The position numbers and the translations under genes were made by a program. The notes under the pieces are model-generated. The model made no database searches. It was not told where the DNA came from and saw only the letters and a list, made by a program, of their open reading frames with translations. A DNA stretch of 64,000 bases from Omnitrophica WOR_2 bacterium RIFOXYA2_FULL_38_17 (GTDB lineage Bacteria; Omnitrophota; Gorgyraeia; Zapsychrales; Zapsychraceae): NCBI GenBank assembly GCA_001805965.1, contig MHHG01000027.1:477-64476 (forward strand), given 5' to 3'. Within the stretch, counting starts at the first letter, position 1, and every line of letters starts with the position of its first letter. Shown in pieces: positions 18,441-63,345 of this stretch.

Positions 18441-19823
18441 TTAAGAGTCTTTCAGCTTTTCCATTCTTTCTTTAATTTTTCTCTCATAACCAAGCTCTCC
18501 AGGATTATAATATTTTGCATTTAAAGGCATGTATTCTTGCTTAATATAATGATCTTTATAATCATGTGCATATTTATAATCTTTTTGACGCCCAAGACTT
18601 TTAGCTCCTGCATACGAGGCATCTTTCAAGTGAACGGGAACTTCCTGGATTTTTTTATTCTTTACATCCTCCAAAGCATTATTAATAGCCATATATGCGG
18701 CATTTGATTTTGGTGAACAAGCCACATAAATAGCCGCCTGAGCCAGAGGGATCCTAGCCTCCGGCATGCCAATGAATTCTGATACCTGCAATGCGGCATT
18801 GGCCAAAACCAATGCCTGCGGGTCCGCATTTCCAACATCCTCAGCCGCGCAAATACATATCCTTCTGGCAATAAATCTTGGATCTTCACCGGCATATATC
18901 ATTTTTGCCATCCAATAAATTGCGGCATCAGGATCAGACCCTCTCATTGATTTAATAAACGCAGATGCTGTGTCATAATGGGAATCTCCATCTTTATCAT
19001 AAACGACTTGCTTCCTTTGAATTGATTCTTGTGCAATATTTAAGTCAAAATGTATCTTGCCATCTTTAGATTTTGGTGTAGTTGAGCACCCTATCTCCAA
19101 AGCATTGAGGGCTCTTCTCGCATCTCCATCACAAACCTCCGCAAGAAAATCAAGCGCTGCCGGCTTTACTTTTATGGGCAGCTTTCCAAGCCCTCTTTCT
19201 TTATCCTTTAAGGCCCTTTTTAAAATTTGCAGAAGCTCTTCTTTTGACAAAGAATTAAGCTCAAAAACCATAGATCTTGATAACAGTGGACTTGTTAACG
19301 AAAAGAAGGGATTTAAAACTGTTGCTCCGATTAAGATTAAACAGCCGGTTTCAACATCCGGCATTAAAACATCTTGCTGGGCTTTATTAAATCTATGGAT
19401 CTCATCAATAAAAAGAATTGTTTTTTGCCCCGATGTATTTATCCTGTTCAGGCTTCCTTTGATTATTTTCCTAAGGTCTTCAACGTTGGAAGAAACAGCA
19501 TTGATCCTTTCAAAACATGCTTTTGTCTTATTGCTGATACACTGGGCTAATGTTGTTTTACCTGTTCCGGGAGGCCCGTATAATATAAGAGAATTTATTT
19601 TATCTGCTTCAATCGCTCGCAACAGCAGCTTACCTTCTCCAAGGATATGCTTTTGTCCGACATATTCATCCAAGGAACGCGGGCGCATTCGCACACTCAA
19701 AGGCGAATTCGCAAATACCCTTTCTATTGTTGGCCCATCAAAAAGCCCTATTGAATTATTATCTTCACTGTTCATTGGAAAAATACATTCGCATAAAAAA
19801 ATCCCCACCATGCCGTCGGACAA
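18441..19823 (-). CDS. rarA: Replication-associated recombination protein A (AAA+ ATPase RarA/MgsA)
   Basis: Walker A GPPGTGKTT, a Walker B / sensor region and the MgsA C-terminal domain are present. The true start is possibly the internal MNSED Met. Confidence 0.85.
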   Translation of the reverse strand: MSDGMVGIFLCECIFPMNSEDNNSIGLFDGPTIERVFANSPLSVRMRPRSLDEYVGQKHILGEGKLLLRAIEADKINSLILYGPPGTGKTTLAQCISNKTKACFERINAVSSNVEDLRKIIKGSLNRINTSGQKTILFIDEIHRFNKAQQDVLMPDVETGCLILIGATVLNPFFSLTSPLLSRSMVFELNSLSKEELLQILKRALKDKERGLGKLPIKVKPAALDFLAEVCDGDARRALNALEIGCSTTPKSKDGKIHFDLNIAQESIQRKQVVYDKDGDSHYDTASAFIKSMRGSDPDAAIYWMAKMIYAGEDPRFIARRICICAAEDVGNADPQALVLANAALQVSEFIGMPEARIPLAQAAIYVACSPKSNAAYMAINNALEDVKNKKIQEVPVHLKDASYAGAKSLGRQKDYKYAHDYKDHYIKQEYMPLNAKYYNPGELGYERKIKERMEKLKDS

Positions 19824-35836: not shown

Positions 35837-36434
35837 AATTTGTAGATTATATCACACGACTTTTTATAGTCAAGCGATTTCAATATGCTTTAAAAACAAA
35901 ACTTGTTAAATTACAATATCTAGCGAAAAATCAATATTAACTTTTTTATCGACGATAATAATTCGAACTATAATCAATTTTACCCTGCTCAAACAATTAA
36001 AACATAAAAATACTTCTTGTTTCTATTGTTAAACGGTTCATAAGCCTAATATTTGCTAGTGTTTTAGTGTCAGCAAAATATTTAATTTGAAATAAAAATT
36101 TTCTCTGTTATAATATGGCACTTTAGTTATATTTTATTGCGCTTCCAATAAGTCTGTTGTTACCATGACTTTTTTGTTGCAATTTAGCATTAACTCTTGT
36201 AATCTTTGGTACAAGGGGCCGAAATATAACACAATCGGTTTTATTCTTTAACAAGTCGCTTTGCCAATACTTGCCGTAAAGTAATCCATTATATCGGGGC
36301 TAAAGAATCCACACCTGTGGAAAACTTGTTAATACTGTTATTGTTTCTGTAATTCATTTATTTTCAACATATTACGTCTTTGCAAATTAATCTTTTAAAC
36401 TTTAACTCCTCGTAAGAATCAGGAACTTGCTTAA
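35837..36434. other. Candidate chromosomal replication origin (oriC) in the rpmH/dnaA intergenic region
   Basis: A ~600-bp AT-rich non-coding region between divergent rpmH and dnaA. Gene strand bias switches exactly here. Two facing DnaA-box-like 9-mers are present: GAATCCACA at 36305-36313 and TGTGGAAAA at 36316-36324. Confidence 0.55.
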
Positions 36435-37769: not shown

Positions 37770-37911
37770 TTAAGTGTTTGTATGCAAGATTTTAACAGCC
37801 AAATTGTTCTTAAATAATTGAAATATAATCACTTTACACCTTGTTCGAATTATTAACAGGTACTACGTATACGATTACTATTTAGATCTTTAACTTAGTT
37901 ATAGGAAGGAA

Positions 37912-39009
37912 ATGAATAAGATGAAACTAAAAATGAAAAGAGATGATCTCCTAATAGGTATTCAAACTGTACAGAATGTTGTATCGAGTAAAGCAACACT
38001 ACCTATTCTATCTAATGTATTATTAGAGATTAGCAATAATATTCTGAAATTAAATGCAACAGATTTGGATATTGGGATTTCCTGTGCAATACCTGTGGAA
38101 TCTATTGAAGAAGGAGCAATAACTATTCCTGCAAAAAGATTTAGCGATATAATTAAAGAATTGCCTGTTGGGGATGTCAATATTTATGCAAAGAAAAACA
38201 ATCAAATTGATATTGAAGGAAAAAATTGTAGATTTAAGTTGAATGGTCTTCCAAAAGAGGAATTTCCAAAATTTCCAGAATTTAAAGACAATGAGATGAT
38301 CAGAATTCAACAGGCAGATCTAAAAGAAATGTTTAAATTAACCTCTTTTGCCGCGTCTCATGAGGAATCAAGGTATGTTTTAAATGGAGTTTTAATTGAA
38401 TTATCAGATGACCTTATAAGAATAGTTGCAACTGATGGTAGAAGATTGGCGAAAATTGAAAAAAAATTAAATTCTTCTATTAAAAAAGAGGTTAGTGTTA
38501 TTATTCCAATAAAAGCAGTGCAGGAAATCAACAGAAATCTCAAGGAAGAAGGGGAAGTCTCCTTTATTATAGGTACAAATCAAATTTTGTTCGATATTGA
38601 TGGAGTTTTGATTGCAACCAGGGTAATTGAGGGGGAATTTCCTAATTATAACCAAGTTATTCCAAAACCAATCAAAACAAAGGTCAATGTTAACACAAAA
38701 GATTTTCTTTATACTATTAAAAGGGCAAATTTATTAGCAACACCTGATTTTCAAGCGGTTAAATTCGAGATTTTTAATGATAAAATGGTTGTTTCTAAAC
38801 ATACTCCTGATGTTGGAGAATCGAGAGAAGAAATTCCTATTGAATATACTGGTCCGGAATTTATAGTTGGTTTTAATCCTGTTTTTCTAATTGATTTTTT
38901 AAAAAATATTAATAAAGAAACAATTGGTATTGAATTTTTAGGTCCTGATAAACCCGCAGTTATAAGGATAGATGATTATTTGTATTTAGCCTTACCAATG
39001 AGAATATAG
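37912..39009 (+). CDS. dnaN: DNA polymerase III beta sliding clamp
   Basis: 365 aa with a three-domain beta-clamp pattern. It lies immediately downstream of dnaA. Confidence 0.9.
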   Translation: MNKMKLKMKRDDLLIGIQTVQNVVSSKATLPILSNVLLEISNNILKLNATDLDIGISCAIPVESIEEGAITIPAKRFSDIIKELPVGDVNIYAKKNNQIDIEGKNCRFKLNGLPKEEFPKFPEFKDNEMIRIQQADLKEMFKLTSFAASHEESRYVLNGVLIELSDDLIRIVATDGRRLAKIEKKLNSSIKKEVSVIIPIKAVQEINRNLKEEGEVSFIIGTNQILFDIDGVLIATRVIEGEFPNYNQVIPKPIKTKVNVNTKDFLYTIKRANLLATPDFQAVKFEIFNDKMVVSKHTPDVGESREEIPIEYTGPEFIVGFNPVFLIDFLKNINKETIGIEFLGPDKPAVIRIDDYLYLALPMRI

Positions 39010-39096
39010 TGATTTTTAGCATAATTTGTGCATAAACAACAGGGTAGCCTAGGTGTCAATAGGATTGCAAAATAAAAAAAATAATAAATTGATAGA

Positions 39097-41897
<2,801 letters not shown>

Positions 41898-41944
41898 AAA
41901 AGAGAGTTAAAGATTCAAGAATATAGAGAGAAAGGTGTTTTTTA

Positions 41945-44398
41945 ATGAGAGACTTATCAAATAGAGAAAAGATAGTGCCCGTTTATATAGAAGAAGAGAT
42001 GAAGCAATCATATCTTGCTTATTCTATGAGCGTTATTGTTGGGCGCGCGCTTCCGGATGTGCGGGATGGGTTAAAGCCGGTCCATAGACGAGTTTTATAT
42101 GCAATGAAAGAGCTTAGCCTTGAACACAGCAAGCCGTATAAGAAATGTGCGCGTATTGTCGGTGAGGTATTAGGTAAGTATCATCCTCATGGAGATACTG
42201 CGGTTTATGATACCCTGGTTAGAATGGTGCAGGATTTTTCTTTAAGATATCCTCTTATAGATGGCCAAGGCAACTTTGGATCTATAGACGGAGATTCTGC
42301 TGCTGCTATGCGCTATACGGAGGCCAGGATGGCTTCTATTTCAGGCGAAATGCTGAAAGACATTGATAAAGAAACGGTCAGTTATGCTCCTAACTTTGAT
42401 GCTACATTACAAGAGCCGGTTGTTTTACCGGCAACTTTGCCAAATCTTTTGATAAATGGATCAAGTGGTATAGCTGTAGGAATGGCAACAAATATGCCTC
42501 CACACAACATCTCGGAAGCAGTTGACGCTGCTATTTTTCTTATTGATAACCCTGATGCACTTGTAAAACAATTAAACAAGATAGTTACCGGTCCTGATTT
42601 TCCGACGGGCGGTATTATTTGTGGGCGCCAGGGCATAGTAGATGCTTATAATACAGGCCGCGGCAAAATAATAGTTCGCGCAAAAGCGAACATTGAAAGA
42701 CAAAAAGGCAATAAAGACAGGATCATTATTTCGGAGATACCTTATCAGGTTAACAAGGCAAGATTGATAGAGTCGATCGCAGAGCTAGTGTCAACCAAAA
42801 AAATAGATGGCATTACCGATCTAAGAGATGAGTCCGACAAAGAAGGCATTCGTATAGTTATAGAGTTGCGCAGGGATGTAGAACCGCAAATAATTTTGAA
42901 CTATTTGTTTAAACATACGCAAATGGAAACAACTTTTGGCATTATCAACCTTGCATTGGTTAACAATAGCCCAAAGGTTTTGAATTTAAAACAGATTTTA
43001 GTCCATTTTTTGAACCACAGAAGGATAGTTGTTAGAAAGAGAACAGAGTTTGACCTTGATAAGGCCTTGCGCAGGGCTCATGTTTTGGAAGGATTAAAGA
43101 TAGCACTAGACAATATTAACCAGGTCATTAAAACCATCAGGGAATCGAAAAGTACGCCTCTTGCAAAAGTTGCCTTGATGAAAGGCTTTGGGCTTTCAGA
43201 GATCCAGTCCCAGGCAATCTTAGAAATGCAGTTGCAAAGGTTGACCGCGCTTGAAAGAAACAAGATAGACGAAGAATACAAAGCGCTGCTTAAAGACATA
43301 GAGAATTACCGGGCTATTTTAGAATCTGAAAAAATGATAGATGATATTATTAAAGGAGAGCTTGTTGATATAAAGAAAAAATATGGCGATGAGAGAAGAA
43401 CAGAAATTGCCGGCAAGGCTGAAGAGATTGAAATAGAAGACCTTATCGCCGAGGAAGAAATGGCGATAACCATAAGCAATACCGGCTATATTAAAAGATT
43501 AGCAGTGTCTTCATATCGTAACCAGAAAAGAGGCGGCAAAGGGGTATCTGCAATGACAACAAGAGAAGAGGACTTTGTTAAACATCTATTTATTGCCTCT
43601 TCTAAAGATTATCTTTTGATATTTTCTAATAAAGGGATTGTAAGATGGCTCAAGGTTTATGAAATCCCTGTAGCCTCGCGAAATGCAAAAGGCAAGAATA
43701 TTATCAACCTGTTGTCTCTTGAACAAGATGAAGAAATAAGTTCGATTGTTGCTGTTAAAGAATTTTTTGATGACCAGTTCTTGGTTATGTCGACAGCAAA
43801 GGGTAATATAAAAAAGACAAAATTATCAGCTTTCAGCAATCCTAGAAAAAGCGGAATAGTTGCGATCAGCCTAGATAAAGGGGATCGGCTGATAGGCATT
43901 TCTTTAAGTAATGGAAGGCATGAAATTTTGTTGGCTACAAGAGAAGGAAAGGCGTTGCGGTTTAATGAAAAGCACATTCGCGATATGGGCCGTGCTGCAA
44001 GAGGAGTAAAGGGAATTAATCTGGCTAAGGATGATGAGGTCGTAAGCCTTCAGGTTTTTTCATCAGATATTGGTAAAACTGGAAGCACTTTGTTAACAGT
44101 TTCATCAGGAGGCTTTGCGAAGAGGTCAGATTTTAATGATTATCGGGTACAGGCTAGAGGAGGCAAAGGTATTATTAACTTGAAGGTAACTCCCAAGAAT
44201 GGGAATGTTGTTGGTGTTCTGGCTGTAATGACTGAAGATGAAATCATGACAGTTACAAAGACTGGGATGATAGTTCGCTGCTCTACAAAGGATATTCGTA
44301 AATCAGGCAGAAGCACGCAGGGGGTTAAGCTTATTGTGTTGAAAAGCGGAGATAGGGTCAGCTCTGTTGCGAATGTTGTGGCAAAAGAAGCTGAATAA
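41945..44398 (+). CDS. gyrA: DNA gyrase subunit A
   Basis: The active-site region [10 protein letters not shown] with its catalytic Tyr is present. There is a GyrA-box-containing C-terminal beta-pinwheel. Confidence 0.95.
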
Positions 44399-51327: not shown

Positions 51328-52287
51328 TTGTTTAAAGGGAGGAATTATAACGTGGAAAAAATACGTAAAAGATTTAATTTACTTGCTATATGTCTTGTCT
51401 GTGTCTTTTTCTTTGTAGGGTGTGAACAAATTGCAGCAATTAAAGCATATTTTACCGGCGAAGATGAAGCTGTTGACAAGGCACCGGTTGTAGAGCCTGT
51501 AAAAACTACGGTCGAACAGCCGGCAATGACGCCTGACACGATTGCAAGAGTCGGCAATTGGACAATTACAAGAGATGAATTTAAAGAAAGAGTAAAAGCC
51601 TTAAAGGAAGTTGTTCCTGACTTTGATGTGGATAGCGCAGAAGCAAGAAAGATGGTAATTGATGAGTTAGTTCGTCAGCAGCTTTTAGTTATTGATGCTG
51701 AAAAGACGGGGATAGCAAACAGTAAGGACATCAAAGATGCTGTTGCTGAATTTAGAAGAACTCTTATAGTTAGGGAAGCAGCACAAAAATTGGTAGAAGG
51801 CATTACGGTCACTGACGAAGAGGCTCAAGCTTTTTATGATGAGAATAAAGAGCAGTTGATTCAGCCGCCACAGTTTCATGTAAAAGAGATAGTTGTTCAA
51901 GACAGCACTTTGGCGGAAAAGATAGTCGCTGATTTAGCAAGTGGCGCAGATTTTTCAGAAAAGGCAAAAGAGCATTCAATTAGCACAACAGCAAAAGCCG
52001 GGGGGGATGTTGGCTTTATAGATTCTGTTCCTTTTGAAGCCATGGCTCCGATACTTATGGCTATGACAAAAGGTGAAGTAAGTAAAGTGGTTGCGGCGCC
52101 TACAGGTGAATTGTATATTGTTAAGCTTGAGGATAAGACAGAAGGAAGGCAATTAGAGTTTGCAGAAATAAAGGCCGATATTATTCAGAATCAAACTCTA
52201 TTAAAGCAGCAGCAAAAGTTATTAGAAAAACTTGAAACCTTGCAGAAAGAGATCAAGGTTGAAGTAAATTACGATCTTTTAAAATAA
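51328..52287 (+). CDS. PpiC-type peptidyl-prolyl cis-trans isomerase (parvulin) lipoprotein
   Basis: A lipoprotein signal (LVCVFFFVGC) is present. The C-terminal parvulin domain is FHVKEIVV...GGDVGFI. The start is possibly the GTG at about 51352. Confidence 0.7.
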   Translation: MFKGRNYNVEKIRKRFNLLAICLVCVFFFVGCEQIAAIKAYFTGEDEAVDKAPVVEPVKTTVEQPAMTPDTIARVGNWTITRDEFKERVKALKEVVPDFDVDSAEARKMVIDELVRQQLLVIDAEKTGIANSKDIKDAVAEFRRTLIVREAAQKLVEGITVTDEEAQAFYDENKEQLIQPPQFHVKEIVVQDSTLAEKIVADLASGADFSEKAKEHSISTTAKAGGDVGFIDSVPFEAMAPILMAMTKGEVSKVVAAPTGELYIVKLEDKTEGRQLEFAEIKADIIQNQTLLKQQQKLLEKLETLQKEIKVEVNYDLLK

Positions 52288-52340: not shown

Positions 52341-53249
52341 TTGATGTTTAAGAATGCAGGTTTTTTTACACTGTTTTTGGATGGCAGAACGGAGGACACA
52401 ATGAATCTTGAAAACAAAAAACAGTTTGTTGTTATTCTTATAGCCATTGGGCTTGGTTTAGTTGCTGCGTTTTTAACTAGCCAATATGTCCAAAACAATA
52501 TTAAGGCTCAGACAAAGGCCTTGGCGCGAGATTATGGCAAACAAAATGCTGGTTTTGCAAAAGAGATTGAGACCTTAAGAAGCGAGGTCAAAAGACAGCG
52601 TGATGAGATCAAGCAGCTCGAAACAAAGCAAAGCCAATATAAACCAGGAGTTGCAGCGCAGGCTACAACTGAAAAGGTTCAGCCAGTTGTTCAGATGGAT
52701 TCTTTTTCAGTGAGAACGCCTCCTGGAAAACGAGCAGTTACTATTTTAGTTGATTCTCTATCGGCTGTTGGAGGGCTTATTAATCCAGGAGACTTCGTTG
52801 ATATTATCGGTGAGATAAAGATACCGGAAGAATCCGGTGATGCTAAGTCTGTAAAGGACGTGACCACTGTTTTATTCCAGAATATTCAAGTGCTGGCAGT
52901 TGGAACTAATTTTAAGCCTCTTGGAAGCGCTCCTGCTTATGAAGCACAGCAAAAGGCCAGATCCCTTAACATAACAGTTGCGATAAGTCCAGAAGAGTCA
53001 GGATTGATTGCCTTTGCTCAGGCAAATGGAAAATTACAGCTGACTTTAAGGCCGCCAACGGATGGTGGTTTGCAGCTGCTTCAGGTTGCCTCTTGGGATA
53101 CTTTAGCTGAATATGTTATGGACCACCAGGGAACAGAACTCATGGTTCCTCAAAAGCAAGCAAATATTTTTGAAGCAGATGACCAAGAAAAAGATGAAGT
53201 TCGTCCTTATATCCAGATTTTTAAATCAGGAGCAGAGTCTAATTTTTAG
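52341..53249 (+). CDS. cpaB: Flp pilus assembly protein CpaB/RcpC
   Basis: An N-terminal TM anchor, a SAF-like domain and an RcpC C-terminal domain are present. The probable start is the Met at about 52401 (MNLENKK). Confidence 0.75.
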   Translation: MMFKNAGFFTLFLDGRTEDTMNLENKKQFVVILIAIGLGLVAAFLTSQYVQNNIKAQTKALARDYGKQNAGFAKEIETLRSEVKRQRDEIKQLETKQSQYKPGVAAQATTEKVQPVVQMDSFSVRTPPGKRAVTILVDSLSAVGGLINPGDFVDIIGEIKIPEESGDAKSVKDVTTVLFQNIQVLAVGTNFKPLGSAPAYEAQQKARSLNITVAISPEESGLIAFAQANGKLQLTLRPPTDGGLQLLQVASWDTLAEYVMDHQGTELMVPQKQANIFEADDQEKDEVRPYIQIFKSGAESNF

Positions 53250-53598
53250 AAGGTTTGTGCCTGTATCGTAGAATTGCGTTTTGTTTGATTGTTTCGTGCA
53301 TTGTGGCGCTTATTAATTTATGCAGACAACCTCACTCGGTCATCCTAGGCAAATTAAGCAATTTCCACCGGGAAGCAGTGAGGCGCTGAGAGCGTATAGC
53401 CAGGAAATCTTCTAAAAAAATACAGCCCTTGAGAATATGAACACTTTTTTAAAGGGGATTTTTTTCAATTATAACTTGAGATTTGCGTATAAGTTGTGTT
53501 GTGTTTTATGCGACCGCTTAGAGCCAAGGGGATGATTTTTAATTACAAATCAATCCAAACAAGAAAACTTGTTTTAAAGAAAGTAAGAGATCTAAATT

Positions 53599-55251
53599 AT
53601 GGATATTAAAAGTATTTTTGAAAAAATAAAGTTTGTCGCGCTAGGGGTCGTTTGTGTATCCGTAGCAATTATTTTTGCCTCATCGTTGGCGCAGGCCAAT
53701 GCCCTGGATGATATTTATAAAAATCTTGATACAACGAATGATAATGAGATTTTTATGGTTGTGGGAGAGTTGACGATAGCTAAGGTTACAAATATGACAA
53801 GGCTTTCAATTACAAATCCAGATATTGCTGATATTGTTGAAGCTGACGATAAAGAGATTCTTCTTATAGCAAAACAGCCTGGGCAAACAATACTTTTTGT
53901 CTGGGATGATGCGGGAAAAAGAATGGTTTTTGTTAATGTTCAAGCCGCAGATATGGGAATGCTTGATATGGCCATCCAAAGAATAGATACTCTTTTAAAA
54001 AAGGGAAGAATTGAAGGGATAAAGTTAGAGCCTAATAAAAGAGAAGGCAAGATATTTGTGACAGGTGATCTTGCAGAAGAAAATGAAGAGATGCTTGATA
54101 AGATCTTGGATGGATATGCGGATATTATTGTGAATCTTATAAGGAAAGAAGAGATTCAAGACCTTATTCAAGTAGACATGCAAATGACAGAATTAAACAC
54201 CACTCTTACAAAGAGCTTGGGCATAGATTGGTCTGCTGGAACGAGTGGCGTATCCTTGACATATCCTGAAGAGTTGCCGGAAATGGATGGTACGATAGGT
54301 GACTTTTTTAAGATTGGAGATTTTAGCAGAACATCAATGTTAACAGCAACAGTTAAAGCTTTGTTAGAAAAAGGAGAAGCCAGGGTTCTTTCTCGACCAA
54401 AAGTAGTAGTTATAAGCGGGGAAGAGGCAAGTTTCTTGGTTGGGGGGGAAATCCCTATTAAGACAACAACTTCTTCTGCTGAAGGGACCCAAGAAAATGT
54501 TTCCTTTAAAGAATATGGTATTGGATTAACGATAACGCCGACAATAAAAAAAGAAAAAATAGATATTCAGCTAAATGTTGAGATCAGTGATGTTGCTTCT
54601 GGAACAGGAAACGAAACGTCTTTTTTTACAGAGACAACAACAACGCGAGTTCTTTTAAACAATAAACAAACGATGGTTCTTGCTGGTCTAATCAAAGAGA
54701 ACAGAGGTTCTAGCGTGCGAATGGTTCCTTTTTTTGGGCAAATACCCGTAGTTGGGATGCTTTTTAGGTCTAAAGGAACTAATCCATCAGAGACTGATAA
54801 AGAGCTGGTTATTTCAATGACTCCTACTATTTTAGAGAGAAATCGCAACAATATAGAAGAGGTAAAAGAGGAAAAGGTTGAAGAATATAGAACGACGGCC
54901 ATATATAAACAAAAAGTTTCTTCATCCTCTTCAGTTCCCTACTATTTGGGAATACCAAAAAACATGACTGAGTATGTAAGAAATGTTCAGAAGCAAATTT
55001 CAAAAGCGATTCTTTATCCTCCCGAGGCAAAAAGATATGGGTGGGAAGGAACAGTTAGGATGAATTTGCTGATACTAAAAGATGGAACTCTTGCATATGC
55101 TTTAATTCAAGAATCATCAGGGCATGAGATTATGGATGAAAGTGCTCTAAGGGCGGCAAAAAGACTTGCGCCGTACTCAGGGTTTCCTTCAGATGTAGAC
55201 CTGCAGGAATTGAATATTACTGTTCCAATTGTTTACAGCTTTAAGAAATAA
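53599..55251 (+). CDS. cpaC: Tad/Flp secretin CpaC/RcpA fused to a C-terminal TonB_C domain
   Basis: A signal peptide, BON/N-domain-like region and secretin core (VLSRPKVVVISGEEASFLVGGEIPI...) are present. The last ~100 aa match TonB_C (YPPEAKRYGWEGTVRMNLLILKDGTL...ESSGHEIMDESALRAAKRLAPYSGFP). Confidence 0.8.
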   Translation: MDIKSIFEKIKFVALGVVCVSVAIIFASSLAQANALDDIYKNLDTTNDNEIFMVVGELTIAKVTNMTRLSITNPDIADIVEADDKEILLIAKQPGQTILFVWDDAGKRMVFVNVQAADMGMLDMAIQRIDTLLKKGRIEGIKLEPNKREGKIFVTGDLAEENEEMLDKILDGYADIIVNLIRKEEIQDLIQVDMQMTELNTTLTKSLGIDWSAGTSGVSLTYPEELPEMDGTIGDFFKIGDFSRTSMLTATVKALLEKGEARVLSRPKVVVISGEEASFLVGGEIPIKTTTSSAEGTQENVSFKEYGIGLTITPTIKKEKIDIQLNVEISDVASGTGNETSFFTETTTTRVLLNNKQTMVLAGLIKENRGSSVRMVPFFGQIPVVGMLFRSKGTNPSETDKELVISMTPTILERNRNNIEEVKEEKVEEYRTTAIYKQKVSSSSSVPYYLGIPKNMTEYVRNVQKQISKAILYPPEAKRYGWEGTVRMNLLILKDGTLAYALIQESSGHEIMDESALRAAKRLAPYSGFPSDVDLQELNITVPIVYSFKK

Positions 55252-55307: not shown

Positions 55308-57632
55308 ATGAGTGCAAAAATAATAACTATTTTTAGTAACAAAGGTGGCGTTGGCAAAACGTTTGTTTCTGTTAATATGGCTACGGCCTTGGCCCTTGCA
55401 AAGTATAAAGTTCTTTTGATCGATATGGATTTTCAGGCTGGTCAGGATATGGCAAGAACCATGAACCTGTCTCCAAAGAACTCGATTGTTGATGTTCTGC
55501 AGCAAATAGAAGCAGTTACAGACCATGTCGTTATTAGAAGGTTTTCTGCGCGACATACTTGTGGATTGGACTTTATGGCGGCAGTTAAGAATACCCGTCA
55601 AATAAGTTTAATTACGCCAGACAATATAAAACCATATCTTAGAAAAATCTCAGAAGTATATGACTTTATTCTTATCGACGCAGGAAAAGCTTTCCATGAA
55701 CCACTTATTACAGTGTTCGATTATTCCAACCTTATTTTATTAGTGGCAACTCCGGATATTTTGGCTGTTTATCAAATAAAGTGGTGCCTTGATGTTCTTC
55801 AGAGCCTGCAGTTTCCAATGAAAATGATCAAGCTGCTTTTGAACAGGTCTGAGAGCCGTGGAAGCGTTGCCTGGCAGGAAGTTAAATCTGCACTTACTTG
55901 TGAGATTTTTGGACATGTGCCTTCCGATGGCAAGGCAGTGGGCATTGCTCTTAACAGGGGAATCCCCTGTGTTATAGATAATCCAAAGAGTCATGTTGGA
56001 GAAGCTTTTATCAAGCTAGTTGATGCTTTCCGAAAGGAAAGCAATTTTGTTCCTGCAATGGATGTTGAAAAGATAAGGAGCAAAGAAGAGCTGCCTAAGC
56101 CAGGAGAATTTTGGGCTAAATATGGCATTGCTCAGCAAATGGGTACGGCGCCTTCAGGAAAAGCTTACGCTTCGCAGGAAGATGAAATAAGTATTTTAAA
56201 AAGAAAAATTCATCTAAAGTTGGTTGACAGGCTTAACAAAGAAGGCATTTCTCTAGAGGCTTTAAGCGATCCTGAATCTATACATAAGGTTAAAAAAATG
56301 GCTGAAGGAGTAGTTGGTACTTTGCTTACAGAAGAAGCTGGTGGCAAGATATCTTCACATGAAGAGAGGGTCCGTTTAGTCAGAGATATTGTCAACGAAG
56401 CTTTAGGCTTAGGACCATTAGAAGATCTTTTAGCTGATCCGGATATAACGGATATTATGGTCAATTGTAGAGACGAGATTTATGTTGAAAAGAGCGGAAA
56501 ACTTGTTCTTACTGATTATAGTTTTGTTTCGGAGGACAAGATGAGGGCTATTATTGACAGGATTATTGCTCCTTTAGGTAGAAGAATAGATGAATCCACG
56601 CCGATGGTTGATGCGCGTTTGCCTGATGGCTCAAGAATTAATGCTATCATTCCGCCGCTTTCTCTGCGTGGGCCAATGATAACTATCAGAAAGTTTGGGG
56701 CTGAAAGACTTAATACTTTTGATTTGCTAAATAAATATCATAGCGTGACCAAAGAGATGGTTTTGTTTTTGAATTGTGCTGTTATTGGCCGCAAAAATAT
56801 TATTGTTTCAGGGGGAACAGGTGCGGGTAAAACAACATTGTTAAACGTTGTCTCTGAGTTTATTCCTGATAATGAAAGAATTATAACTATTGAGGACGCG
56901 GCTGAGTTGCGATTAAAAAAAAGCCATTGCGGAAGACTGGAGTCTAGGCCCAGAAACATTGAAGGTAAGGGCGAGGTTACCATTAGAGATTTATTTATTA
57001 ATTGCCTGAGAATGAGGCCTGACCGTATAGTTATCGGTGAGTGCCGTGGCCCTGAAGTTTTAGACATGTTGCAGGCTATGAACACGGGCCATGATGGATC
57101 TTTGACCACATTGCACGCAAATACAACTAGAGACGTTGTTACTCGTATGCACTCAATGATCCTTTTAAGCGGCATTGAATTGCCTGTCAGGGCTATTAAT
57201 GAAATGATCGCTTCAGCTATCGATATTATTGTTCAGATCAATCGTTTTTCAGATGGAACTCGAAAGGTCACACAAATTTCTGAAACTTGTGGCATGGACG
57301 AAGATCACCAGCTGATATTGAAAGATGTTTTTATTTATAATCAAAAAGGGATTGATTTGGATGGGCGTGTCGTTGGAGACTATGAAGCAACAGGCTATGT
57401 TCCGGAAAGCTTCAATGACTTTGTAACGCGAGGGCTGAAAATTGAAAAGAGCCTTTTTGATAAACGTACTATTTATGTTAATACTGATGAAAAAATAGAG
57501 GTTCCTGAAGTCGAGATATTAGCCCCTGAGGAAGTAAAAAAACTAGTTGTTGGACAATCTAAAACAGTGCAACCTAATGCTCAGCCTAAACAGGCTCAGC
57601 CGCCTACTCTGCCGCCAAAGCCGGCGGAGTAG
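55308..57632 (+). CDS. Fused Tad ATPases: CpaE/TadZ-like ParA-family ATPase + CpaF/TadA secretion ATPase
   Basis: The N-terminus starts with a deviant Walker A (FSNKGGVGKTFVS, ParA/MinD type). The middle region carries the CpaF N-domain (GLGPLEDLLADPDITDIMVNCRDEIYVE). The C-terminal half is a VirB11/TadA-type ATPase with Walker A GGTGAGKTTLLN, Asp/His boxes, and a Pro/Gln-rich tail. Confidence 0.85.
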   Translation: MSAKIITIFSNKGGVGKTFVSVNMATALALAKYKVLLIDMDFQAGQDMARTMNLSPKNSIVDVLQQIEAVTDHVVIRRFSARHTCGLDFMAAVKNTRQISLITPDNIKPYLRKISEVYDFILIDAGKAFHEPLITVFDYSNLILLVATPDILAVYQIKWCLDVLQSLQFPMKMIKLLLNRSESRGSVAWQEVKSALTCEIFGHVPSDGKAVGIALNRGIPCVIDNPKSHVGEAFIKLVDAFRKESNFVPAMDVEKIRSKEELPKPGEFWAKYGIAQQMGTAPSGKAYASQEDEISILKRKIHLKLVDRLNKEGISLEALSDPESIHKVKKMAEGVVGTLLTEEAGGKISSHEERVRLVRDIVNEALGLGPLEDLLADPDITDIMVNCRDEIYVEKSGKLVLTDYSFVSEDKMRAIIDRIIAPLGRRIDESTPMVDARLPDGSRINAIIPPLSLRGPMITIRKFGAERLNTFDLLNKYHSVTKEMVLFLNCAVIGRKNIIVSGGTGAGKTTLLNVVSEFIPDNERIITIEDAAELRLKKSHCGRLESRPRNIEGKGEVTIRDLFINCLRMRPDRIVIGECRGPEVLDMLQAMNTGHDGSLTTLHANTTRDVVTRMHSMILLSGIELPVRAINEMIASAIDIIVQINRFSDGTRKVTQISETCGMDEDHQLILKDVFIYNQKGIDLDGRVVGDYEATGYVPESFNDFVTRGLKIEKSLFDKRTIYVNTDEKIEVPEVEILAPEEVKKLVVGQSKTVQPNAQPKQAQPPTLPPKPAE

Positions 57633-57650: not shown

Positions 57651-57995
57651 TTGAGAATACTCAATAAAACAAAACAGAACACAATAGCAGATAAGGCCCT
57701 TCTTGCAGATAATTTTTTAACTAGAATGGTTGGGCTCCTTGATCGAAAGTCTTTGAAAGAAGGAGAAGCTCTGGTTATTACCAGGTGTAATTCTATTCAT
57801 ATGTTTTTTATGAAATTTGCCATTGATGCTGTTTTTGTTAGCAAAGAGAACATAGTTGTTGGTCTAGTTCAAGATATCAAGCCATTTCAGCTCAGCCGCA
57901 TTTATTTTAAGTCTAGCTATGTTGTAGAGCTGCCATCCAGCACAATATTTAGATTAGGAATTGCTATTGGCGATCAATTAGCAATCTTAAGCTAA
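57651..57995 (+). CDS. DUF192-family protein
   Basis: 114 aa. The DUF192/COG1430 pattern matches ...RMVGLLDRKSL.EGEALVI..CNSIHMFFMKFAIDAVFV...VVELPSSTIFRLGIAIGD. Confidence 0.55.
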   Translation: MRILNKTKQNTIADKALLADNFLTRMVGLLDRKSLKEGEALVITRCNSIHMFFMKFAIDAVFVSKENIVVGLVQDIKPFQLSRIYFKSSYVVELPSSTIFRLGIAIGDQLAILS

Positions 57996-58143: not shown

Positions 58144-60168
58144 ATGGGAGTAGTCCACAAATTGAGAAAGGAAGTTTTTGACTTTATTATCAACCAGAAG
58201 AAGGAAGATCCCTCTCTTAGTTGTCGACAAATATCAGATCTTATAAGCAGTAAGTTTGAAATTAAAGTATCAAAGTCTTCAGTTAACTCTGTTTTAAAAA
58301 GCACTCAGTTAAGCAGTTCAGTGGGAAGACGGGTCCTAAAAAAAGCGATGTCTAAAAAATTCCAAATTCCTCAACAAAAGAAACAACAATTACTAGAGAG
58401 CATTTCAACCCTTGGTTTTACCTTTGACCATAAGGCTACGGCTGAAGAGGATCCGCTGGGAGCGATCAAGGACAATGTCTTTGCAGAAAAGCAGCAGGAA
58501 GAAGGCTTTTCTCTAGAAAAACTTTCTCTGGAGCTTCAGGAGCATGATAGAAAAAAACGCAAGAGCAGGATTTTTTATGATGCAACAAACCAAGAAGTTG
58601 AAGATATAGCAGCGGCTCAAATGACACAAGGAGTACAGGGAGAAAATAAAGAAGCAAGCGCCAATAAAGAGAAGAAGGCATATATTGTTCCCGCTGGTCC
58701 GATATTCTTTGATGAGGAACAATTCCTTTATGATTTAAAAATTGCCAGAGAAGATAAAGAAAAAGAAAAAAATAATAGGCATTTGTATGATAATGCGGGA
58801 GTGGTTTTTTTAAAAGCTGCGCAGATTGATACAGATGGAGAAAATCTTTTGGGAGATCTGTTTAGAAAAAATTCAAAAGGTGTTGTTGTCGATAATTTTA
58901 ATAATATTTGTTCGGGCTTGCTGTTTCTTAAAGCATTTAATATTCAATCTGTAGAGAATATTGAAAAATCAAAGAATGATGCTTTATGGAGATTAAATGG
59001 CTTTAGAAAAGGGTATCCAGGAAGAGAAAATCTTTTTGGGTGGACGCAGAAGATTGATTTTTCAAATCAATTACAATTGGAATATCTTAATGAAAAAGAG
59101 CAGTCTTTAAGCAGTATAAAGGCTTTCAGGATCATCTTTGAGGATGCCACAAGCATTATCCTTGATGCCCAAATGAGGTCTATTTGGAGAGAGCCAGTAC
59201 AGCAAGATTTGTTTTCTTCTTTAAGTAGTGCAATGACGCTTCTTTCCAAAAAACTTATAAGCAATAATGAGTGTTTGGTGATGGATGTTTTAAGAGAAAA
59301 AGGCATCAATAGAACGGATTTTGCAAGAATTCTTGCTTCTTTTTTTGATATTATTGGCAGAAAAATGCGCAAAATTGAAGTATTAAGCGAAAAACAAGAA
59401 ATACTTGCTGAATTTACTCTTATTCCTTCAATTAAGCGCTTTTTTATTGTGGGATTTAGGCCTTATCAGGAGATTTTTAAAGAATATATTTGTAGTATTA
59501 CAGATACTGTTGAATTTCCCTATTATGACAGGCCAAGAGACAGAGTCTTATACTATTCGGAAGTAAATGTTCCATTGGTGGCTTTATTGAAGGATTTTGT
59601 AAGTATTCCTCAAATTCTTCAAGAAGAAAGGCCTTTAAAATGGGTGCTTTTAGGACAACAAAAGAAAAAAGCATCTCAAATAGCTCTTTTGACAAACATG
59701 ACTACAGAGAAAGCAGAAAGTATTATTTCAAAATACTTAACCCGTTGGCCAAGTGCATTTAATAAACAATATATAGAGGAAGGAGACAGAACAGACATTA
59801 ATAGAGAAGAGCTTAATAAAAATCAGAAAGAATATCAATGTTACGCTGGTGACTTTGTTGAAAAGGTGTTTGACAATTTTGGAGATATTTTTAACGATTA
59901 CATTTTAACCCTGCATAAGTATTGTTTAGATAAATATTTTCCAAAACAAAAAAGTGAAATTGACATAAAAACTATGGTGTCAATATTTTATGGATTGCAG
60001 GGTTTTGTAAGGGAAAGTTATGATCAATTAATTGTTACAATTTTGATACCTCAAGGGTACAATTTCCTTGATATCTTGGAATTTGCCATTAGTAGAGTAA
60101 ATGACAGACACTTAGTAACAAAGGATGGCAGAGGTATTTATGTAAGTGCTGAAAAAGTAAAAGCTTAG
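58144..60168 (+). CDS. Hypothetical 674-aa cytoplasmic protein (possible N-terminal HTH), embedded in the Tad locus
   Basis: A long ORF with a good SD (AAAGGGATAAAGTATG) and no TM or signal peptide. The first ~60 aa look HTH-like (SLSCRQISDLISSKFEIKVSKSSVNSVLKS). No recognisable catalytic motif. Confidence 0.6.
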   Translation: MGVVHKLRKEVFDFIINQKKEDPSLSCRQISDLISSKFEIKVSKSSVNSVLKSTQLSSSVGRRVLKKAMSKKFQIPQQKKQQLLESISTLGFTFDHKATAEEDPLGAIKDNVFAEKQQEEGFSLEKLSLELQEHDRKKRKSRIFYDATNQEVEDIAAAQMTQGVQGENKEASANKEKKAYIVPAGPIFFDEEQFLYDLKIAREDKEKEKNNRHLYDNAGVVFLKAAQIDTDGENLLGDLFRKNSKGVVVDNFNNICSGLLFLKAFNIQSVENIEKSKNDALWRLNGFRKGYPGRENLFGWTQKIDFSNQLQLEYLNEKEQSLSSIKAFRIIFEDATSIILDAQMRSIWREPVQQDLFSSLSSAMTLLSKKLISNNECLVMDVLREKGINRTDFARILASFFDIIGRKMRKIEVLSEKQEILAEFTLIPSIKRFFIVGFRPYQEIFKEYICSITDTVEFPYYDRPRDRVLYYSEVNVPLVALLKDFVSIPQILQEERPLKWVLLGQQKKKASQIALLTNMTTEKAESIISKYLTRWPSAFNKQYIEEGDRTDINREELNKNQKEYQCYAGDFVEKVFDNFGDIFNDYILTLHKYCLDKYFPKQKSEIDIKTMVSIFYGLQGFVRESYDQLIVTILIPQGYNFLDILEFAISRVNDRHLVTKDGRGIYVSAEKVKA

Positions 60169-60590: not shown

Positions 60591-60746
60591 ATGAAAAAAT
60601 GGAATCATAAAGGTCAAAATCTAATTGAATATGCCATGGTCGCAGCTTTAATTTCCGTAGCAGTTGTTGCTATGAGTACCTACGTGTATAGGTCAGTTCA
60701 GGCCACCCAGCAGGTAATACAAGAAGAATTCAAAGCATCACAATAA
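60591..60746 (+). CDS. flp: Flp-family type IVb prepilin (short, canonical; likely major pilin)
   Basis: 51 aa: MKKWNHKG|QNLIEYAMVAALISVAVVAMSTYVYRSVQ... It has the Flp G/XXXXEY processing motif and a single hydrophobic helix. It is under 60 aa, so not in the ORF track. Confidence 0.75.
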   Translation: MKKWNHKGQNLIEYAMVAALISVAVVAMSTYVYRSVQATQQVIQEEFKASQ

Positions 60747-60889
60747 TATTTACGCGAGAAAAGACGAACAGATAATAATTTCTGTGTCATTGCTTGCGTA
60801 AGGCTTAAAAATTAGTGTATTTTTAGGCTTAATTAAGCAAAAACCCTTGTTTAGTAACAGGGATTGTTATTATCGAAGGAGGATAAATA

Positions 60890-61120
60890 ATGCTTAAAAG
60901 GATGATTCATAAAACATCTGGCAAAATGAAAAGAGGCCAGAGCACAGTAGAGTACATTATTTTGATAGCTGCTGTTTTAGCCGCTCTCATTATTTTCTTA
61001 GGACCAGGAGGGCCATTCCAGACTGCATTTAACACAACAATCAACTCTGGTACAGATGGTATGGAAGACATGGCAGACAGATTAGCTGGTTCAAGACCTG
61101 CTGCTAACAGTACCCCTTAA
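60890..61120 (+). CDS. Flp-family prepilin paralog 2 (76 aa)
   Basis: MLKRMIHKTSGKMKRG|QSTVEYIILIAAVLAALIIF. A strong SD GAAGGAGG precedes it. Confidence 0.75.
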   Translation: MLKRMIHKTSGKMKRGQSTVEYIILIAAVLAALIIFLGPGGPFQTAFNTTINSGTDGMEDMADRLAGSRPAANSTP

Positions 61121-61179
61121 TCAGGAGAATAAGAAGGAATCCAGTTATTTGGAGAAGTTAAAATTAGGAGGTAAAATCA

Positions 61180-61542
61180 ATGCTTAGAAAATTGATTAAA
61201 AATAAAAAAGCGCAAAACACAGCCGAGTATGCAATTTTGATATCTCTGGTTGTTGCTGGTATTATTGCCATGCAGACTTATGCTCAAAGAGCATTGCAGG
61301 CAAGAGTTCGTGATGCCGCACAGCATCTTGCTACACAAACCAATGGTTTAGGCAACACAGTACAATATGAACCTTATTATTTATCAACTGATTATAACAT
61401 TATTCGGGATGAAACTATGACCGAAAGTTATGACTCAGATGCTATTTTGAAAGGTGAAAATTCTACTAGAACAAGGCAAGAGGGTGGTCGTCAGACAACT
61501 TCTTACGATACATCAGTTGCTGGTATTCAAAACGGTCTCTAA
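61180..61542 (+). CDS. Flp-like prepilin paralog 3 with extended C-terminal tail (120 aa)
   Basis: ...KKA|QNTAEYAILISLVVAGIIAMQTYAQRALQARVRDAAQ, with Ala at -1. The Ser/Thr/Tyr/Asp-rich tail contains YEPYY. SD is AGGAGG. Confidence 0.7.
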   Translation: MLRKLIKNKKAQNTAEYAILISLVVAGIIAMQTYAQRALQARVRDAAQHLATQTNGLGNTVQYEPYYLSTDYNIIRDETMTESYDSDAILKGENSTRTRQEGGRQTTSYDTSVAGIQNGL

Positions 61543-61612
61543 TAGTAGACCTGATTGGTTAGTAACATAAGAAGTGCTCTTTAGAAGAGGTAAAATTAAG
61601 GAGGCTAAAACA

Positions 61613-61942
61613 ATGTTTGAATATTTAAATAAAAGAAGAAAGAAAGGCCAGAGCACGCTAGAATATGCAATTTTGATTATCATTATCATAGGCGCTCTAG
61701 TCTCAATTCAGGTCTACATAAAGAGAGGTATTCAAGGTCGCTTAAAAGGTGCGGCTGATGATATCGGAGAACAATTTTCCCCTGGAAACACAAATGTGCA
61801 AAAAACAGTAAGAACTATAAGTTATACATCAGATACCAATATTGGTGGTGTTGTAACTTCAGCGTTACTTAACGACGAAGAAACAGTTACCCAAGGAACT
61901 TCAAGAATTGCTAATGTTGAGCAAGAATATTGGGGAAGTTAA
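61613..61942 (+). CDS. Flp-like prepilin paralog 4 with extended C-terminal tail (109 aa)
   Basis: The start is taken at ATG 61613 after SD AAGGAGG. MFEYLNKRRKKG|QSTLEYAILIIIIIGALVSIQVYIKRGIQGRLKGAADDIGEQF. Confidence 0.7.
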   Translation: MFEYLNKRRKKGQSTLEYAILIIIIIGALVSIQVYIKRGIQGRLKGAADDIGEQFSPGNTNVQKTVRTISYTSDTNIGGVVTSALLNDEETVTQGTSRIANVEQEYWGS

Positions 61943-61988
61943 TAAAAGCTGTTTTGTAAAACGTAAGTTCTTAGTGTGACAATCAGAT

Positions 61989-62031
61989 CCGGTTTGCCGA
62001 GAAATATTTTTTCGGCAAACCGGTTTTTTTT
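61989..62031 (+). terminator. Strong intrinsic terminator after pilin paralog 4
   Basis: CCGGTTTGCCGA-gaaatatttttt-TCGGCAAACCGG followed by TTTTTTTT. Confidence 0.85.
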
Positions 62032-62237
62032 GCACAAAGAAAAGATTTATCGATGTTTGTTTGTGATTAAATTTTTTGGTAAAATAACGCAAAAAAGACA
62101 AAAAGGGTTTCCGTAAGTTTATGGTAGTGTTAGTTTTGTACGTTTGAAAAATCAATCCCAGCTCTATTCATTTACATAAAAATAATGTATACTTATTGTA
62201 TGAGTCTTAAAATTATTTAAAAAGGGGCGAGTTTGTT

Positions 62238-62621
62238 ATGCTAAGGATTGTTAAGAATAATAGAGCTCAGGCGGTAGTCGGCGAATATGTTATAGTGTTT
62301 TTTATTGCCATCGGAGTTATTACAGCAATGAGCACTTATTTTCAAAGAGTTGTTCAGGGCAGAATTTATGATGCCAGAGATGCAATGGTCAGTCTTACAA
62401 GAAATCAATCAGCAGGATATTTTAACGGCAACATTTTTTTTCATTATGAGCCCTATTATCAAAATACTGATTCAGAAACCTATCGCAGTCTTATTTCGAG
62501 AACTAGTCTTGTCGAGGGGGGGACCAGTGGCATTTACAGGGTCGAATATGATGATCTTTCAAGGATAACTAGCACAAGTGTGACTAAGCCGCCAAGGGAT
62601 GCAGATAAGGAATATGAATAG
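62238..62621 (+). CDS. Flp-like prepilin paralog 5 with extended C-terminal tail (127 aa)
   Basis: MLRIVKNNRA|QAVVGEYVIVFFIAIGVITAMSTYFQRVVQGRIYDARD. The tail contains HYEPYY and resembles paralog 3. Confidence 0.7.
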   Translation: MLRIVKNNRAQAVVGEYVIVFFIAIGVITAMSTYFQRVVQGRIYDARDAMVSLTRNQSAGYFNGNIFFHYEPYYQNTDSETYRSLISRTSLVEGGTSGIYRVEYDDLSRITSTSVTKPPRDADKEYE

Positions 62622-62642
62622 CAAATTAGTCTAGAGGGAAGA

Positions 62643-62996
62643 ATGTTTAAAGGGAATTTACAATTTTGGAAAAATAATAAAGCTCAAAGCATTCTAGAGT
62701 ATTCATTGATCATAGGAATAGTGACGGTGATTTTTTTTAATATGGGGACATTTCTTAAAAGAGGCACGCAGGGGATGATTAAGACGATTGCTGATCAAAT
62801 CGGAGATCAAAGGAATGGTGACCAGATTTTTGATGTTGAAGAAGGCTTTATGGTAAATGCTTTTATTGACACTGATGCCACGACAGAAAAAACAAGAGGG
62901 GAAGATGCCGGTGTCGTAACGCATTATTATAATGATAGGATGCACTCTGAGTCAACGACTGAAACACTCTTAGGCTTTCAGGAAGAAGAAGATTAA
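62643..62996 (+). CDS. Flp-like prepilin paralog 6 with extended C-terminal tail (117 aa)
   Basis: MFKGNLQFWKNNKA|QSILEYSLIIGIVTVIFFNMGTFLKRGTQGMIKTIADQIGDQ. It ends with an acidic C-terminus. Confidence 0.7.
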   Translation: MFKGNLQFWKNNKAQSILEYSLIIGIVTVIFFNMGTFLKRGTQGMIKTIADQIGDQRNGDQIFDVEEGFMVNAFIDTDATTEKTRGEDAGVVTHYYNDRMHSESTTETLLGFQEEED

Positions 62997-63030
62997 AAAA
63001 ATAAAGTTGTTATTGAAACAGGAGAGATTT

Positions 63031-63345
63031 ATGTTTAAAAGAATAAGAAAAGGTCAAACATCAATGGAGTTCCTGATCTTGATGACAGTTATTCTTGCGG
63101 CTTTTTTATCGATAGGGAATTATTTCAAAAGAGGAGTACAGGGAAGATGGAAAACCGCTGTTGATGAATTAGGAGAACAATATGATCCTAGGACGGGAAA
63201 CACTATGCTGGTACATAGGATAATCTCAAATACGGATACGCAGATCATTTCTTTAAACACCACAGGAGGCTGGTGGACGTCGAGAAGAGATATGACGAAT
63301 GTCGTTGAAACTAAATCCGGACATGTTTCCGCTGGGTCATATTAA
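63031..63345 (+). CDS. Flp-like prepilin paralog 7 with extended C-terminal tail (104 aa)
   Basis: The start is taken at ATG 63031 after SD AGGAGAG. MFKRIRKG|QTSMEFLILMTVILAAFLSIGNYFKRGVQGRWKTAVDELGEQYD. Confidence 0.7.
   Translation: MFKRIRKGQTSMEFLILMTVILAAFLSIGNYFKRGVQGRWKTAVDELGEQYDPRTGNTMLVHRIISNTDTQIISLNTTGGWWTSRRDMTNVVETKSGHVSAGSY

Follow-up and report, generated by a model that had tools for sequence, protein, structure and literature searches.

A TonB C-terminal domain is fused to the Tad pilus secretin in Omnitrophota

The stretch of DNA analysed here, a 64-kb part (positions 477 to 64,476; hereafter the window) of contig MHHG01000027.1 from Omnitrophica WOR_2 bacterium RIFOXYA2_FULL_38_17, carries a locus for a Tad (type IVc) pilus. 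The secretin gene of this locus, cpaC/rcpA::tonB_C (53599..55251, plus strand), encodes a clear CpaC/RcpA secretin with a new C-terminal module, a TonB C-terminal domain (TonB_C) that automated annotation had already recorded. The fusion is conserved phylum-wide in Omnitrophota, where it is the rule; of all segments of the protein, TonB_C is conserved best, and it evolves under strong purifying selection. We infer a periplasmic location, an anchoring role and the kind of ligand of the domain: on balance, we favour the reading that TonB_C on the Tad secretin is a general anchor or tether in the envelope, whose ligand would be either the wall or a protein.

Results

Domain organization of the fused secretin

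The gene is an uninterrupted single open reading frame (ORF) of 550 amino acids (aa) and a stop codon, and it is defined by the ORF, by Pfam and NCBIfam matches and by its homologues. Residues 1–34 (53599..53700, plus strand, as are all parts of the gene) read as a Sec signal peptide that ends ...SSLAQA/NA, with a K-rich n-region, a hydrophobic core and an AQA/N cleavage site (the slash marks the cut); in the AlphaFold2 model, which is a monomer built on a 103-sequence alignment, this segment appears as a lone N-terminal helix. Apart from the linker described below, the signal peptide is the least conserved region. It is followed by a periplasmic β-sandwich of the T2SS-T3SS_pil_N family (residues 53–114; 53755..53940; Pfam E-value 7.6e-12), which is modelled with a predicted local distance difference test score (pLDDT) of ~90, and by the secretin core (PF00263, residues 255–412; 54361..54834; Pfam 1.4e-37), which lies within a β-rich region (residues 189–413) of the model and has Foldseek matches to secretins of type II secretion (T2SS), type III secretion (T3SS) and type IV pilus (T4P) systems and to RcpA (8odn). 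A linker rich in E, K and S and without proline (residues 414–446; 54838..54936), delimited by pLDDT and column identity, is predicted to be disordered and leads to a conserved pre-helix and TonB_C (residues 447–550; 54937..55248). The last segment is supported by Pfam, pLDDT, Foldseek, conservation and the ratio of nonsynonymous to synonymous substitution rates (dN/dS).

The TonB_C match itself (PF03544) covers residues 471–547 (nt 55009-55239) with an E-value of 2.6e-15 and 57.1 bits, the Pfam gathering score being 24.6 bits. TonB_2 also matches, more weakly (residues 458–541; 6.9e-5). NCBIfam gives the model tonB_Cterm (TIGR01352) at 1.8e-13, together with partial matches to GspD, PilQ and other secretin models. 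A preliminary description, made from the letters alone, had placed a TonB_C domain at the end of a CpaC/RcpA-type secretin, at 54931-55251. This segment corresponds to residues 445–550 and the stop codon, the peptides quoted for it (YPPEAKRYGWEGTVRMNLLILKDGTL, IQESSGHEIMDESALRAAKRLAPYSGFP and VPIVYSF) are all present, and both assignments are borne out, that of the domain by the profile matches and the predicted structure, and that of the secretin by its pil_N and Secretin domains and its tad locus. The protein ends ...PIVYSFKK, with no tail beyond TonB_C.

The fusion is genuine and strongly conserved

Relatives were collected in two ways. A scan of one genome per GTDB species gave 103 relatives, the best 80 of which were kept (the 80 loci), and a search of 5.8 billion proteins gave 538 relatives of the 550-aa secretin, with the domains checked in the best 120. 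PF13629, PF00263 and PF03544 occur together in 120 of these 120 homologues; those with a named source come from Candidatus Omnitrophota/Omnitrophica and are called "TonB family protein" or "CpaC". Identity to the window protein across the 80 loci ranges from 36% to 89%, and all matches extend to query residues 546–550. The secretin core and TonB_C share one frame with no intervening stop in 79 loci, the lone exception being L069, in which the frame changes between the two. The closest relative (L001, 89% identity) is an "Omnitrophota bacterium" metagenome-assembled genome. A few of the loci bear the labels "uncultured Planctomycetales", "Elusimicrobia" or "bacterium"; we rejected these labels as evidence of a wider distribution because the loci concerned have the Omnitrophota gene order. 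The homologous fusions that the preliminary description proposed to look for are found in both collections. Its view of the fusion as unusual holds against model organisms and fails within Omnitrophota, where the fusion is present in at least 80 species representatives.

Mean pairwise column identity is 0.70 for TonB_C, 0.62 for the secretin core, 0.55 for pil_N and 0.12 for the linker. The dN/dS relative to the closest relative is 0.052 for TonB_C, 0.089 for the secretin core and 0.066 for the N-domains. These values bear on the possibility that an error of assembly or sequencing has fused two genes, or that the C-terminal segment is a decaying remnant. Save for the frame change in L069, nothing beyond the prior possibility speaks for such an artefact; the same in-frame fusion is shared by 79 of 80 independent genomes and recurs in hundreds of metagenome proteins, and the segment in question is the one held most strongly by selection. 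We therefore assign virtually no probability to this explanation, and an assembly or sequencing artefact is excluded by the in-frame recurrence, the conservation and the dN/dS.

The linkers of the family are of low complexity (A/S/E/P/K, 8% proline), disordered, and 13 to ~240 residues long. The secretins carry one TonB_C, or two in tandem in some lineages. Two TonB_C subtypes can be distinguished, type A ("YP[YF]EA...PIVYSQ") and type B ("YPxEA...PIVYSL"), and the window protein belongs to type B. The subtype survey lists the proteins P0030, P0031, P0061, P0062, P0087, P0099 and P0114 alongside loci L001-L080; across the 80 loci, 29 species have type A only, 47 have type B only, 3 have an A+B tandem, and 1 has two copies of type B.

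Some relatives extend beyond the domain. In one clade (L032, L034, L039, L046, L048, L053, L075), TonB_C is followed by a 15–17-residue tail that ends ...[EQ]TVV[AS][AS]Y; judged by its letters, this tail is similar to a TonB box and might serve TonB_C as a ligand in cis or in trans. Tails in other clades end ...DAFLKNVAKRK or ...EKAILGTPxxxKK. A TonB-box-like strand inside the protein was considered and rejected: the PxYxGIP motif ahead of TonB_C is kept only in a subset, and the window protein has no post-domain tail.

The predicted structure places the tail among TonB domains

The AlphaFold2 model has a mean pLDDT of 79 over the whole protein, with confident N-domains and secretin barrel. 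Residues 418–448 have a pLDDT below 50 and are therefore modelled as disordered, whereas residues 450–550 form a compact unit with a pLDDT of 85–96 and the order α-α-β-β-α-β. Searched with Foldseek against the PDB, the body of the protein matches secretins, including RcpA-TadD (8odn) and PilQ-TsaP (6ve2). The tail superimposes on Helicobacter pylori TonB (5lw8 and 6sly) with a template-modelling (TM) score of 0.75–0.77 and a root-mean-square deviation (rmsd) of 2.0–2.5 Å, and on TonB bound to TbpA (9dc4) with a TM score of 0.76 and an rmsd of 1.5 Å; further matches are FusB and domain III of TolA. A phmmer search of PDB sequences also finds the H. pylori TonB C-terminal domain closest, at ~1e-5, in an alignment that takes in the helix preceding the core. 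As predicted by the model, the C-terminal domain adopts the canonical fold of TonB C-terminal domains, with its β-β-α-β core.

A natural tandem of two TonB_C domains, taken from the C-terminus of P0114, was modelled as well. Its Foldseek neighbours are exclusively C-terminal domains of TonB, TolA, HasB and FusB. Both domains are modelled with confidence and the spacer is disordered, and this model (predicted TM score, pTM, of 0.48; alignment of only 10 sequences) gives no support to packing of one TonB_C on another. In this model the tandem copies behave like beads on a string.

Matches to the C-terminal domain in Pfam and NCBIfam are solely to TonB_C, TonB_2 and TolA. Compared with LysM, AMIN, OmpA_C, SPOR and PG_binding_1, the domain shows no sequence or fold match in Pfam, NCBIfam or Foldseek. 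The missing match to known wall modules counts against the domain being a recognized peptidoglycan-binding module and leaves untouched the claim that it anchors the channel.

The same TonB_C subfamily occurs on TolC-like proteins

A query consisting of residues 443–550 was searched against 1.84 billion cluster representatives (50%-identity clusters), which gave 9321 matches at E<=1e-3 and 312 at E<=1e-10. Most of the 312 carry the secretin fusion. The top matches are mostly secretin fusions or 5′-truncated fragments of secretin fusions, and the other top-ranked proteins that were checked include TolC-like OEP proteins and M56 peptidases with 3-4 TonB_C domains, besides further secretin fusions, the domain subfamily ranking within the top 150 of the 1.84 billion representatives. 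The TolC-like proteins P0194, P0227 and P0261 have two or three N-terminal TonB_C domains. P0261 (locus L081, 8001-10076) is encoded in a resistance-nodulation-division (RND) efflux operon, next to a giant ORF of 4373 aa or more; the name Candidatus Omnitrophica is attached to the P0261 homologues P0279 and P0280. An Omnitrophota "array" protein, P0122, is a truncated form of the 1183-aa P0272, in which six TonB_C domains precede the OEP domain, and another OEP homologue (P0284) has tetratricopeptide (TPR) repeats where the others have TonB_C. At least some Omnitrophota therefore carry this TonB_C subfamily on two unrelated outer-membrane channels, in 1-6 copies. Its presence on TolC-like proteins argues for a ligand that is not specific to Tad and, with the range in copy number and the disordered tethers of varying length, favours a general tether in the envelope over a contact confined to the Tad machine.

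A proposed tethered anchor for the secretin

The protein is the outer-membrane secretin of the Tad/Flp pilus and would be exported by Sec and then inserted as a multimeric pore; secretins of this class form gated outer-membrane channels of 13-14 subunits. If its topology follows that of solved secretins, the C-terminus of each subunit would lie on the periplasmic side of the barrel, and the disordered tether of variable length and the TonB_C domain would occupy the position of the TadD-binding tail of RcpA. Tethered TonB_C domains, one on each subunit, could then form a flexible crown that fastens the pore to a periplasmic layer. This layer may be peptidoglycan, or it may be a protein, wall-associated or of the envelope, with an exposed β-strand to which TonB_C could pair edge to edge, as happens in all solved complexes of TonB/TolA domains. 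The crown would steady the channel, or keep it in position, while pilus extension and retraction pull on it, and TonB_C would supply in cis what TadD, CpaD, TsaP or GspA/B supply in trans elsewhere.

Two features shape this reading. With neither an inner-membrane anchor nor ExbB/ExbD coupling, TonB_C cannot act as an energy transducer; and because a folded, tethered domain stands at an accessory position in a locus with no TadD- or CpaD-like gene, we read it as a cis-encoded passive tether. For a wall or general wall-associated ligand speak the presence of the domain on TolC-like ducts too, the arrays of up to six and the diverse tether lengths, which are typical traits of wall-binding modules. 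For a protein strand speaks the observation that all structural neighbours with a solved complex bind a protein.

Several points weigh against an anchoring role. No TonB-box-bearing partner was found in the locus. To our knowledge, TonB_C is not an established peptidoglycan-binding fold, and its Foldseek neighbours are all of the TonB/TolA type, with a protein as the partner wherever a complex has been solved. The placement of the C-terminus in the periplasm is carried over from other secretins, and the absence of a pilotin or tether gene covers the 64-kb window and the 10-kb flanks of the relatives, which are the neighbourhoods that were examined.

The tad locus and alternative roles

Over the 80 loci the gene order is conserved: nitrilase, malate/lactate dehydrogenase, a SurA-like peptidyl-prolyl isomerase (PPIase) lipoprotein, cpaB, cpaC::tonB_C, cpaE::cpaF, DUF192, a 674-aa protein and seven Flp-like pilins. 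The cpaB/rcpC gene (52341..53249, plus strand; Pfam RcpC 6.1e-24; TIGR03177 1.5e-27; 80/80 loci) encodes the inner-membrane-anchored periplasmic alignment protein, which ends in a conserved P[FY]IQIF[RK]GG motif. The non-coding spacer between cpaB and cpaC (53250-53598) is 350 bp long here and roughly 10–130 bp in most relatives; it contains no Rfam family, and its promoter and terminator counts are at the level of shuffled sequence.

The end of CpaB bears on a docking role confined to the Tad machine, in which TonB_C would capture a strand of another Tad component by β-augmentation and lock the outer- and inner-membrane subcomplexes together, comparable to the job of CpaI in Caulobacter. The conserved terminal strand of CpaB stands beyond a variable acidic linker, and the solved complexes (TonB with BtuB, FhuA, FoxA and TbpA; TolA with a TolB peptide and g3p) all involve a protein strand. 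Precedents are found in Caulobacter, where the C-terminal hairpin of CpaB docks onto CpaI, the bridge to CpaC (PMC13170226), and in ExeB, a protein described as TonB-like whose binding site on the ExeD secretin is the periplasmic domain (PMC4098917). However, a C-terminal β-hairpin has been reported for the CpaB of Caulobacter too, where the secretin is described without TonB_C (PMC13170226), which indicates that this tail does not specifically co-occur with TonB_C. The same subfamily is also found, in 2-6 copies, on TolC-like proteins that have no Tad partners. Docking of this kind is in our view unlikely.

Directly upstream of cpaB lies the gene for the SurA/PpiD-like PPIase (51328-52287, plus strand), which has a lipoprotein signal (..FFVGC), is syntenic in 70/80 loci and is a candidate dedicated secretin chaperone. 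No TadD- or CpaD-like gene, nor any gene for a TPR lipoprotein, is seen in the window or in the flanks of the relatives. Both observations would fit a built-in assembly factor, in which TonB_C acts mainly in biogenesis as a substitute for the pilotin, replacing the TadD-binding tail instead of forming a permanent anchor; the secretin might be targeted or oligomerized through contacts between TonB_C domains or with BAM or Lol. TonB_C does occupy the position of the S-domain that binds the pilotin in RcpA, whose assembly needs that tail (PMC10499894). Against this stand the tandem model of P0114, which shows no confident packing between domains (a weak point, given its alignment of 10 sequences), and the up to six copies on TolC-like proteins, which a role in assembly alone leaves unexplained. 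TolC-like proteins, as far as we know, need no pilotin. We consider a pilotin substitute quite improbable.

Downstream of the secretin gene, a 774-aa cpaE::cpaF fusion (55308..57632, plus strand; 77/80 loci) joins a CpaE/TadZ-like ParA/MinD ATPase to a CpaF/TadA-type secretion ATPase (AAA_31/CbiA and T2SSE; TIGR03819 1.2e-96); in Caulobacter, CpaE and CpaF are described as two separate proteins. The next genes encode a DUF192 protein (57651-57995, plus strand; within the tad locus in 67/80) and, adjoining it, the conserved 674-aa protein (58144-60168, plus strand; within the tad locus in 59/80), for which a weak N-terminal helix-turn-helix match is the sole match. Seven tandem Flp-type pilin or pseudopilin genes (60591..63345, plus strand), recognized by Flp-like processing motifs and by the families Flp_Fap and Class_IIIsignal, are syntenic in between 37 and 54 of the 80 loci, the number varying with the ORF. 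In relatives the pilins are followed by a 463–548-aa TadG-like pilin and further small pilins (L057, 9295-11666; L067, 9702-12668). The pilin set is unusually rich for a Tad locus.

Genes of the exbB, exbD, tolQ or tolR type are absent from the window and from the conserved locus with its 10-kb flanks, and no TonB-dependent transporter is encoded in the window or in the flanks of the relatives. The first of these absences bears on energy-coupled gating, in which TonB_C would bind a strand of an inner-membrane protein that a motor of the ExbBD/TolQR type drives, and the proton-motive force would open the secretin or aid pilus dynamics. Such coupling has parallels: TonB3 of Pseudomonas aeruginosa and TonB2 of Acinetobacter baumannii are needed for pilus assembly or pilus-dependent transformation (PMC8811193), and GltG/GltJ of Myxococcus use TonB_C-like motifs in a motor-coupled machine (PMC9389320). 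Yet the secretin has no membrane anchor and no region for contact with ExbD, motor genes are missing from the locus, and tandem arrays on variable tethers do not suggest a force-bearing link, so that gating is highly improbable.

The window also includes the chromosomal origin region (~33849-44398), with a change of sign in GC skew near 36–37 kb; yidC and parA/parB are on the minus strand to one side and dnaA, dnaN, gyrB and gyrA on the plus strand to the other. This setting fits the position reported for the Tad locus of 'Ca. Velamenicoccus archaeovorus', which is expressed and lies near the genome start (PMC10066038). A 6S RNA (Rfam RF00013, 55 bits; 19798-19950, minus strand) overlaps the annotated TTG start of an MgsA-like ORF (18441..19823), the start of which is therefore probably over-extended. 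A small protein encoded at 850-1395 (minus strand) has two PG_binding_1 domains, the wall-binding module of ExeA/GspA, so the organism encodes classical peptidoglycan-binding modules elsewhere.

Discussion

Significance of the fusion

Secretins need accessory factors for targeting, assembly and holding in the envelope. The known solutions vary by lineage (pilotins; LysM, AMIN or OmpA-like anchors; GspA/B), and a TonB-type domain tethered in cis would be a further one, fixed across a phylum of ultra-small bacteria, most of them uncultured, which are probably predators or parasites. In these bacteria the Tad pilus is thought to mediate attachment to the host (PMC10066038). The main paper on Omnitrophota discusses Tad and RcpA and never mentions TonB (PMC10066038), and no description of a secretin-TonB_C fusion was found in the literature searched, the coverage of which is incomplete and gives no proof of absence.

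The same module on TolC-like ducts points to an unrecognized, non-energetic role of the TonB_C fold as an envelope connector. A broader and speculative extension, to which we give limited credence, is that TonB_C is a general device of Omnitrophota that couples outer-membrane channels (the Tad secretin and the TolC-like ducts) to the envelope in place of pilotins and classical wall tethers, and that, as a Rosetta-stone fusion, it reveals direct contacts between TonB-family C-terminal domains and secretins in other bacteria. If true, this would explain in physical terms why TonB paralogues such as TonB3 of P. aeruginosa and TonB2 of A. baumannii are required for type IV pilus assembly and transformation, a long-standing puzzle, and why secretin assembly requires the "TonB-like" ExeB/GspB. 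The fusion in any case provides a testable clue to why type IV pili in proteobacteria depend on TonB paralogues (PMC8811193).

There is also a consequence for annotation. We rejected the reading of the window protein as a "TonB family protein", since its N-terminus consists of a cleavable signal peptide and secretin domains, with no membrane anchor. The NCBI name of the homologues is a domain-level label and not a functional assignment; it hides the Tad secretin of Omnitrophota and can distort inventories of both pili and TonB proteins in metagenomic surveys.

Comparison with known systems

The window protein shares with the RcpA/CpaC secretins the signal peptide, the pil_N β-sandwich followed by the secretin core, and a tad/cpa neighbourhood with cpaB, the cpaE and cpaF ATPases and Flp pilins, and RcpA is among its Foldseek matches. 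Two described members differ from it in their accessory factors. In P. aeruginosa RcpA, the last four residues of an unstructured C-terminal tail bind the pilotin TadD, a TPR lipoprotein, and assembly depends on them (PMC10499894); the window protein has no such short TadD-recruiting tail and carries a disordered tether and a folded TonB_C instead. In Caulobacter crescentus, CpaC is encircled in trans by the OmpA-like lipoprotein CpaD and has connections to the peptidoglycan layer and, via CpaI, to CpaB (PMC13170226), whereas neither a TadD nor a CpaD gene is found in the window locus. A tail that recruits TadD is not universal among the studied Tad systems (PMC13170226).

Compared with the TonB transducers (5lw8/6sly; E. 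coli TonB-BtuB, 2gsk; TonB-TbpA, 9dc4), the tail is alike in sequence (~1e-5 to H. pylori TonB), in fold (TM score 0.75–0.77; rmsd 1.5–2.5 Å), in the YP...EG.V...SSG motifs and in the preceding helix. In contrast, the window protein has no inner-membrane anchor, no region for coupling to ExbB/ExbD and no proline-rich spacer, and its TonB_C hangs from an outer-membrane protein, which inverts the topology.

Other secretins are served by other accessory modules: TsaP with its LysM domain, AMIN domains or GspA/B for the type IVa pilus and T2SS secretins (PMC4098917, PMC8811193). Together with CpaD, these modules (TsaP/PilQ, PilQ AMIN, GspA/GspB or ExeA/ExeB) resemble the fused TonB_C as periplasmic accessories that ring a secretin or tether it to the wall or to assembly factors. 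They differ in having LysM, AMIN, PG_binding_1 or OmpA-like folds and, except for AMIN, in being separate polypeptides, and none of them is a TonB_C fused to the C-terminus of a secretin.

Two further comparisons lie outside the secretins. In the gliding motor of Myxococcus, GltG/GltJ likewise employ a TonB_C-type domain as the connector of a trans-envelope machine outside nutrient uptake (PMC9389320); they are anchored in the inner membrane and coupled to a motor, whereas the TonB_C of the window protein is tethered to the outer membrane with no evident motor. The other parallel is within the phylum: the TolC-like OEP proteins of Omnitrophota (P0261, P0279, P0280, P0272) have the same TonB_C subfamily joined by a linker to an outer-membrane channel. 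There the channel belongs to the TolC/OEP family, the domains are N-terminal and number 2-6, and the gene, in the case of P0261, is part of the RND efflux operon.

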